IMG/VR virus record: IMGVR_UViG_2703718838_000011
DNA: 43,299 nt
Strand: one strand, 5' to 3'
Source: a virus
Lineage: Duplodnaviria; Heunggongvirae; Uroviricota; Caudoviricetes
Shown: positions 5,587 to 6,640 of the stretch, in pieces
Layout: each line of letters opens with the position of its first letter
How positions within the stretch are numbered: position 1 is the stretch's first letter
Made by a program: the position numbers and the translations under genes
The notes under the pieces: model-generated
Database searches by the model: none
What the model was told of the DNA's origin: nothing
The model's input: the letters and a program-made list of their open reading frames with translations, nothing else

Positions 5587-5635
5587 CACGCCTCCGGAAA
5601 TAAATATCCTCCGGCATAGCCGGAGGTTTTTCAAA

Positions 5636-6345
5636 TGCGCCTATAAGGCTCTCTTACCAGCCGCGCCCTAACAGGCGCACACGATCTGACATTTGCATCC
5701 AACTTCGTTACTTACGGCCCGTAAACGGGCTGCCCGGATAGGGAATCGATAACTGCTCTCCCATTTTATCCTCTTCAAGCTGGTGCTTTATGTAATCCTG
5801 TATCTTCGCCGTGTTCTTACCCACCGTATCGACGTAGTACCCTCTGCACCAGAACTCTCTGTTCCTGTATTTGAATTTCAAATCACCAAACTGCTCGTAA
5901 AGCATCAGACTGCTTTTCCCTTTCAGATATCCCATAAAGCCGGATACGCTCATTTTGGGCGGGATCTCCACAAGCATATGGATATGATCTGCACAGCATT
6001 CAGCTTCAAGAATCCGTACGCTTTTCCACTCACACAGCTTTCTCAAAATACTGCCTATTGCTCTACGCTTCTCTCTGTAGAACACTTGTCTTCGGTATTT
6101 TGGCGCAAAAACTATGTGATATTTACAGTTCCATCGGGTGTGCGCTAAGCTCTTTTCGTTCCCCATTGGGACCCCCTTTTGATTTCTTGTTTGACACTTG
6201 CAGTTGCCAGACCGCAAGGTGTTTTAACAAATCAAAAGGGGTTTTAATAACTGGCTCAAAGCTGAAAGCTTTCCGGAACCCCCAGCCTAGCTGGGGGTTT
6301 TCTGTGCACAATAAAAAAACCGCCATGTCGGCGGTTTACATATGC
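5636..6345 (-). mobile_element. IS200 insertion sequence (IS200/IS605 family), boundaries approximate
   Basis: Encodes a 152-aa TnpA matching IS200 transposase as I remember it; the tnpA-upstream end carries a hairpin plus T-run (6311-6336) and a perfect palindrome AACCCCCAGC-CTA-GCTGGGGGTT (6279-6301), as expected for the IS200 left end; element length about 707 bp. Confidence 0.8.
5708..6166 (-). CDS. tnpA: IS200 transposase TnpA (Y1 HUH transposase)
   Basis: ATG at 6166 gives MGNEKSLAHTRWNCKYHIVFAPKYRRQ...HIHMLVEIPPK...YPGSPFTGRK, 152 aa, recalled as near-identical to Salmonella IS200 TnpA; SD AAGGGGG upstream. Confidence 0.9.
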   Translation of the reverse strand: MGNEKSLAHTRWNCKYHIVFAPKYRRQVFYREKRRAIGSILRKLCEWKSVRILEAECCADHIHMLVEIPPKMSVSGFMGYLKGKSSLMLYEQFGDLKFKYRNREFWCRGYYVDTVGKNTAKIQDYIKHQLEEDKMGEQLSIPYPGSPFTGRK

Positions 6346-6640
6346 ACTGAAATGACTTATCTATTTATCGCTGGATCCATTACGGTCAAGAGATTCGGCG
6401 ATCCTGTAAAGATGCTCAGTCGCCTTGAATGAGTTCATTAGGAACTCATAAAGCACACGTAAAAGCAATGCACTTACCACCGATATCGTAATCGCCGTGA
6501 AATTCATTGAGACAACAGAAAAAATGAGGAAAATGCCAATTACCAGGTAAACAAGCGCAAAAACCTTTGGAGTCTAAATGGCTTTTGCTCCAAAAACTTT
6601 TTCATTCATAACTTCTTCCTTAACGAAATGACGACAGTGA

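Follow-up and report, generated by a model that had tools for sequence, protein, structure and literature searches.

A full-length IS200 element at the T-tract of a native terminator in the tail operon of a lambdoid prophage

The insertion site in the tail operon

The DNA analyzed here (the window; the whole stretch of 43,299 nucleotides of IMG/VR record IMGVR_UViG_2703718838_000011) carries an IS200 element within a run of tail genes, and all genes in the region of the element lie on the minus strand. The features are as follows.

9366 to 10868, minus strand, tail sheath (Pfam)
8991 to 9362, minus strand, tail tube (Pfam)
8711 to 8989, minus strand, tail assembly chaperone (Pfam)
6641 to 8569, minus strand, tape measure gene, 642 aa (position between the chaperone gene and gp43; the homolog in Citrobacter phage phiNP is annotated as a tape measure protein)
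6338 to 6640, minus strand, moron-like insert with small ORFs of 48 aa (6361 to 6507) and 21 aa (6540 to 6605) (absent from phiNP; other cargo in Kluyvera)
6317 to 6337, minus strand, native phage intrinsic terminator, AAACCGCCGACATGGCGGTTT plus a T-tract, the insertion target, outside the IS (terminator scan; IS-free relatives)
6310 to 6314, minus strand, target pentanucleotide TTATT, the 3' end of the terminator T-tract, abutting the left end of the IS (flank comparison)
5599 to 6309, minus strand, full-length IS200 of the IS200C type (empty-site alignment with L003, L005 to L020, and L024, described below)
4183 to 5586, minus strand, gp43-like DNA circularization protein N gene, 467 aa (Pfam DNA_circ_N, E value of 2.8e-30)
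3101 to 4186, minus strand, Mu gpP-type baseplate hub (Pfam)

The 642-aa tape measure ORF had no Pfam match, and its product is 100% identical to that of an IS-free E. coli copy. The element sits in the interval from the tape measure gene to gp43 and shares the strand of these two genes, which agrees with the intergenic position upstream of the gp43-like gene and the tail-operon orientation given in a preliminary description of this DNA. It does not adjoin the tape measure gene; the moron region with its terminator (6310 to 6640) lies in between. The insertion spares the moron, the moron terminator, and the ribosome-binding site of gp43, which starts with the ATG at 5586 to 5584 and has its Shine-Dalgarno (SD) sequence, GGAGG, untouched at 5591 to 5595, 4 nt from the end of the IS. 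Sequestration of this SD (CCGGAGG) by the 5' arm of the right-end hairpin of the element (CCTCCGG) was considered and rejected; in the centroid fold the right-end hairpin is closed and the gp43 SD is unpaired. The idea that gp43 has a promoter of its own, located past the terminator, was also rejected, because in the empty site the distance from the T-tract to the SD is only 4 nt, which leaves no room for one.

Identity, ends, and integrity of the element

Comparison with the empty site in IS-free prophage copies places the inserted DNA at 5599 to 6309 on the minus strand (711 bp). An IS is indeed present where the preliminary description had put one, at 5600 to 6350, but it does not have that extent. 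The element contains the following features, read from its left end, GTGCACAG... at 6309, to its right end, ...ATATTTATT at 5599, on the minus strand.

6277 to 6299, minus strand, IS200 left-end hairpin (IS nt 11 to 33), bidirectional terminator with which the element stops impinging transcription (folding)
6176 to 6299, minus strand, tnpA 5' untranslated region (5'UTR) with an SD-sequestering stem-loop; antisense small RNA art200 on the opposite strand (Rfam and folding)
5708 to 6166, minus strand, tnpA, Y1 HUH transposase, 152 aa, intact (Pfam and alignment with other copies)
5608 to 5626, minus strand, IS200 right-end hairpin, CCTCCGGC-TAT-GCCGGAGG, followed by ATATTTATT to the end of the IS (folding and terminator scan)

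Thirteen other IS200 copies are equal in length to the window copy and differ from it by 2 to 10 mismatches and no indels, and the DNA identity to the IS200C copies of E. coli is 98 to 99%. IS200C belongs to the IS200 group of the IS200/IS605 family, and it shares with the window copy its length, tnpA, left-end hairpin, 5'UTR/art200 region, and right-end hairpin; the location alone differs, and this prophage site is found in no other record searched. TnpA matches Pfam Y1_Tnp (PF01797) with an E value of 3.8e-38 and has the catalytic features of the family, the HUH motif (HIH) at residues 61 to 63 and Tyr125, and a Y125F mutant of TnpA is catalytically dead (PMC4513863). The public collection records the exact TnpA protein in 21,686 of its blocks. 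The region from 6176 to 6299 (minus strand) matches Rfam RF01405 (STnc490, the IS200 5'UTR/art200 locus) over its full length, with 146.4 bits (E value of 3e-31; gathering score of 56), and the fold of the tnpA 5'UTR has a z-score of -6.7. The IS200 terminator has been placed at nt 12 to 34 and described as bidirectional and Rho independent (PMC4513863). At the other end, hairpins had been noticed at about 5605 to 5635, and the right-end hairpin at 5608 to 5626 corresponds to them; with its AUAUUUAUU tail, it is terminator-like in both directions in the terminator scan.

The element has neither terminal inverted repeats nor a target-site duplication. The sequence TTTATT occurs on both sides, on the right as the end of the IS itself, and was considered as a 6-bp target duplication, which was rejected because other IS200 copies end in ATATTTATT, and thus in TTTATT, irrespective of their left flank: the right-end sequence is constant in every IS200 copy checked, and the left flank is variable (TTTTT, TTCTT, TGATT, and others). 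The idea of a truncated or dead IS200 remnant, for which no supporting evidence was found and to which we assign next to no probability, is refuted by the alignments, with the 711-bp length and lack of indels shared with the 13 copies, an intact tnpA with HUH motif and Tyr125, hairpins at both ends, and the full-length Rfam match. The exact ends and the target site are thereby fixed (711 bp, complete, target TTATT), and the complete IS200 with an intact 152-aa tnpA that had been proposed is borne out by Pfam, Rfam, and the alignment to other copies. The IS200 copy is full length and potentially active.

The empty site and the rarity of the insertion

A protein search with gp43 found relatives among prophages of Citrobacter youngae, Kluyvera sichuanensis, and Kluyvera georgiana, and the IS is absent from all of them. 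In the C. youngae (L003) and K. georgiana (L005) prophages, the empty site reads ...AAACCGCCGACATGGCGGTTTTTTTATT followed directly by TCCGGAGGCGTGATG.... Sixteen further loci (L006 to L021) are look-ups of the exact tape measure or gp43 protein of the window; all 16 have no IS200 and a tape measure-to-gp43 spacing of 343 nt. The exact empty-site sequence, ...GGCGGTTTTTTTATT joined to TCCGGAGG..., is present in L003, L005, and 15 of these 16 loci, where the window has the extra 711 bp, and L021 has no match to the search string. Across the insertion, the window reads ...GGCGGTTTTTTTATT, then the IS from GTGCACAG to GGAGGATATTTATT, and then TCCGGAGGCGTGATG..., and the IS junction sequence is GGCGGTTTTTTTATTGTGCACAG. 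An E. coli prophage (L024) is 99.9% and 99.1% identical to the window on either side of the IS.

The IS is found at this site in none of 5,426 complete E. coli genomes, and in none of them does it occur with either of the two flanks. At least 80% of window positions 1 to 25000 is carried by 20 complete E. coli genomes, the best of which show 99.7% identity over 97% of that stretch; the missing 3% is the IS. In addition, the left junction sequence is absent from IMG/VR and from the JGI metagenomes. The exact tape measure and gp43 proteins are recorded in 1,718 and 6,525 blocks of the collection, respectively. The IS-free prophage type is widespread, and the insertion appears to be recent and private.

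The native terminator and its moron

The terminator scan shows a 9-pair stem at 6337 to 6317, followed by a T-tract. This hairpin had been reported at 6311 to 6336 and ascribed to the tnpA-upstream end of the element; the hairpin exists, but it is phage DNA rather than the IS's own, because its position is beyond the IS boundary and every IS-free relative with the moron has it in unchanged form (L003, L005 to L020, and L024). In these relatives it sits 4 nt upstream of the gp43 SD, and it ends the small moron that separates gp43 from the tape measure gene. The insert between the two genes, which in the empty site amounts to 343 nt with the terminator, is also present in E. coli and Citrobacter relatives; in the two Kluyvera prophages different cargo with a terminator of its own takes its place, and in Citrobacter phage phiNP there is no insert and the tape measure-gp43 gap is 33 nt. 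A terminated unit here, other cargo in Kluyvera, and nothing in phiNP make up the pattern of a moron.

The cargo of two Kluyvera prophages (L004 and L005, positions 2560 to 3990) is about 1.4 kb of unrelated DNA at the tape measure-gp43 position, in each case with its own terminator directly before the gp43 SD, and these differences in cargo mark the tape measure-gp43 junction as a hot spot for moron exchange. The 48-aa moron ORF of the window (6361 to 6507) is hydrophobic and has a subthreshold match to the C-terminal half of DUF4282 (E value of 1.6e-4). The 21-aa ORF (6540 to 6605) lies upstream of it and out of frame, and the two may be a frameshifted gene for a small membrane protein. PGAP places no annotation at the moron position in the E. 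coli relative. A promoter-like site is found near the moron at 6711 to 6683 as a consensus match only.

The nearest sequenced phage to the tail module is phiNP (OR565852), whose gp43 is 68% identical to that of the window. Its gene order is the same (sheath, tube, chaperone, tape measure, DNA circularization protein, and baseplate), but the space from its tape measure gene to gp43 is free of moron, terminator, and IS, whereas the window has all three. phiNP was detected by protein search only; a megablast search of the tail region against sequenced phages returned IS200 matches only.

Target choice and orientation

The left flanks of IS200 copies were compared among chromosomal copies of E. 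coli, two lambda-like phages, and 38 IMG/VR contigs, which together gave 34 distinct flanks. A stable hairpin ending no more than 7 nt from the junction is present in 33 of the 34, and under the same hairpin criteria in 109 of 1,087 control TTNTT sites (10%), taken from the window and a related E. coli region. The last five bases of the printed flanks are T rich, end in TT, and are mostly TTTTT or TTATT; the pattern TTNTT fits about nine-tenths of them, with TAATT, TGATT, and TATTT as exceptions. A recent survey reports the same bias toward terminators upstream of IS elements, strongest for the IS200/IS605 family (PMC13548323). The insertion in the window, which lies 3' of the TTATT that ends a terminator T-tract, is thus in a typical IS200 target.

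From the mechanism of the family, the Y1 HUH transposase would insert the element as single-stranded DNA (PMC3333891), and the element would enter 3' of a T-rich pentanucleotide, here TTATT, with no target duplication. The target is read on the strand of the terminator itself, and co-orientation of the IS with the tail operon is a necessary result. The target, a hairpin followed by a T-tract, may resemble the right end of the IS itself.

The lambdoid late operon and its Q gene

The prophage is lambdoid, of the E. coli type, with a Mu-like contractile tail. Its regulators include a CI-like repressor, a CII-like activator, NinB, RusA, and a Q antiterminator, and downstream of Q come the holin, endolysin, terminase, head, and tail genes, all of them on the minus strand.

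25498 to 26187, minus strand, Q antiterminator gene, regulator of the IS-bearing late operon (phrog_304 and Pfam)
25227 to 25308, minus strand, pR'-like promoter (25308 to 25279), then tR'-like terminator (25247 to 25227) (consensus match only)

Q matches phrog_304 with an E value of 9e-104 and Pfam PF06323 with an E value of 1.1e-101, a Pfam family other than that of lambda Q. The promoter-like site after Q (TTGTCA-18-TATAGT) and the hairpin with a T-rich tail that follows it are consensus matches only, and a second strong terminator before the holin gene (24004 to 23983) is a pattern match only. Because of these terminators after Q, late transcription must be processively antiterminated to reach the structural genes. 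A Q-loaded RNA polymerase precludes the formation of terminator hairpins (PMC9388147).

A gene for an SDH-type ClpP-like serine protease (24027 to 24926, minus strand) lies between the Q/pR' region and the holin gene. It is bracketed by the hairpins at 25247 to 25227 and 24004 to 23983 and looks like a second moron of the late operon. Elsewhere in the window, the immunity and replication region (27815 to 35950) aligns over only 497 nt, at 92% identity, with the otherwise 99% identical E. coli prophage L024, and the tail module is 93% identical to that of C. youngae in its upstream half and 99.5% identical in its downstream half; such regional differences are ordinary lambdoid mosaicism. The stretch from 36572 to 43299 encodes a RecE-like exonuclease (1,129 aa), RecT, and a tyrosine integrase and constitutes a Rac-like recombination and integration module. 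ARAGORN predicts a candidate tRNA-Ile (GAT) at 29229 to 29320 on the plus strand, opposite to the surrounding phage genes and unusually long at 92 nt.

Related IS200 insertions in lambdoid operons

The window is one of four independent sites at which IS200 follows an internal terminator in a lambdoid operon and has the same orientation. In the lambda-like phages Lambda_ev058 (LR597651) and PhiR63_2 (PV340574), an IS200 that differs from the window IS at 6 to 10 positions lies between tR2 and ninB, its left end abutting the T-tract TTTTTATT. As in the window, it is co-oriented and directly upstream of the ribosome-binding site of the next gene. In Lambda_ev058 it stands exactly behind tR2 (GGCCTTTTTATT), before the ninB ribosome-binding site and upstream of Q. 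These copies are in the early right, N-antiterminated operon, whereas the window copy is in the late, Q-antiterminated tail operon. In the loci L022 and L023, IS200 is at about 6009 to 6720. Phages with the suffix "ev" were plaque purified from infant fecal viromes (PMC6969025); a literature search returned no paper on PhiR63_2, whose viability is judged only from the deposition of its genome as that of a complete phage.

A further site is found in lambda-like prophages between lom and the side tail fiber gene, in eight IMG/VR contigs (L052 and seven others). IS200 there follows a moron terminator in the late tail operon and is co-oriented, as in the window, but these prophages, known from contigs, have a siphovirus-type lambda tail module, unlike the Mu-like contractile tail of the window. 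In L052, with IS200 at 8020 to 8730, the tail fiber ORF appears to begin just past the right end of the IS. In addition, IS200 occurs after a post-Q antirepressor gene in five IMG/VR contigs (in L053 from 14672).

Taken jointly, these sites allow a tentative reading, which we consider possible but on balance doubtful: IS200 may target the single-stranded terminator (a hairpin plus a T-tract ending in TT), perhaps because such a terminator mimics the right end of the IS (a hairpin plus ATATTTATT), may settle systematically behind antiterminated lambdoid terminators, and may be carried between hosts by plaque-forming phages. If so, IS200 would be tolerated behind lambdoid terminators because antiterminated polymerase ignores the hairpins of the IS, and plaque-forming phages would be regular vehicles of IS200 between hosts.

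Consequences for the prophage

The window ends inside the tail fiber region, and the verdict on integrity applies to the late genes that it fully contains. All 37 of these, a set that runs from DUF1367/ybcO and Q to the baseplate genes, are intact, at full length and with no internal stops. Their proteins are 86 to 100% identical to those of an IS-free E. coli prophage located next to kch (NZ_CM129872), with 35 of the 37 at 99% or more. As far as its sequence tells, the prophage carries no sign of decay or crippling. The reading that we favor, and hold to be probable, is that the IS200 is a near-neutral passenger in a safe site behind a preexisting terminator rather than an insertion that knocks out the baseplate genes.

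During lytic growth, the late operon would be transcribed from pR' by Q-loaded RNA polymerase, which would already have to pass at least three native terminators before gp43. Because it would already pass these, it should pass the left-end and right-end hairpins of IS200 too; the efficiency of this PF06323-type Q at the IS hairpins is assumed here.

The main alternative is that the IS200 is polar, such that its terminators, together with Rho acting on untranslated tnpA, stop late transcription, the baseplate genes are underexpressed, and tail-defective particles result. IS200 insertions in his were reportedly polar in the work of Lam and Roth in 1983. The left end is described as a bidirectional Rho-independent terminator (PMC4513863), and, according to PMC5435999 after Beuzon et al. 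1999, as stopping about 85% of ordinary impinging upstream transcripts. The hairpin at the right end, with its AUAUUUAUU tail, looks like a terminator, and strong repression acts on the translation of tnpA, so that a long stretch stays untranslated. With a left-end hairpin that stops about 85% of transcripts, some 700 nt that are probably untranslated, and a terminator-like hairpin at the right end, a partial loss of baseplate gene expression is plausible even with Q. Against strong polarity, the operon has strong native terminators of its own, including one that all IS-free relatives have 4 nt from the gp43 SD, and it depends on processive antitermination in any case; any polarity from the hairpin at 6317 to 6337 would predate the IS. 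In addition, Q itself is intact, a co-oriented IS200 located upstream of Q is tolerated in a lambda-like phage that forms plaques, and secondary decay is absent from the late genes, although the insertion may be too recent for decay. We therefore regard polar loss of tail function as unlikely, at perhaps one chance in a handful. The preliminary description had gone from polar silencing of the baseplate genes to a defective or domesticated prophage; polar silencing is possible, but this step finds no support in a locus where the hairpin concerned is native, Q and all 37 late genes are intact, and Lambda_ev058 offers a precedent, if one with N-dependent antitermination, and this IS alone is no ground for calling the prophage defective.

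It is far less probable, to the point of being a marginal idea, that the IS is kept because it is useful, for instance as an extra insulator that keeps the lysogen's baseplate genes silent or by supplying the 5'tnpA and art200 RNAs. IS200 RNAs act as regulators of host genes in Salmonella (PMC5435999; PMC12594629), and IS200 is co-oriented behind internal terminators in several lambdoid phages, but the insertion occurs in no other genome or metagenome searched and thus gives no sign of selection, the native terminator already insulates the site, and the recurrent placement is accounted for by target choice.

Significance

The locus presents a known element in a typical target, and the target preference, the terminator, and the presence of IS elements in prophages are already known. 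For annotation, its value is that the boundaries of the IS are exact, the neighboring hairpin is reassigned to the phage, and the prophage should not be labeled defective from this IS alone. With its empty site, the locus is a clean example of IS200 on the T-tract of a terminator, and it fits the published statistics on terminators upstream of IS200/IS605 elements. A mildly interesting generalization is that IS200 is found repeatedly at internal terminators of antiterminated lambdoid operons, including that of a plaque-forming phage, and this siting at terminators suggests why such insertions can persist in phages.
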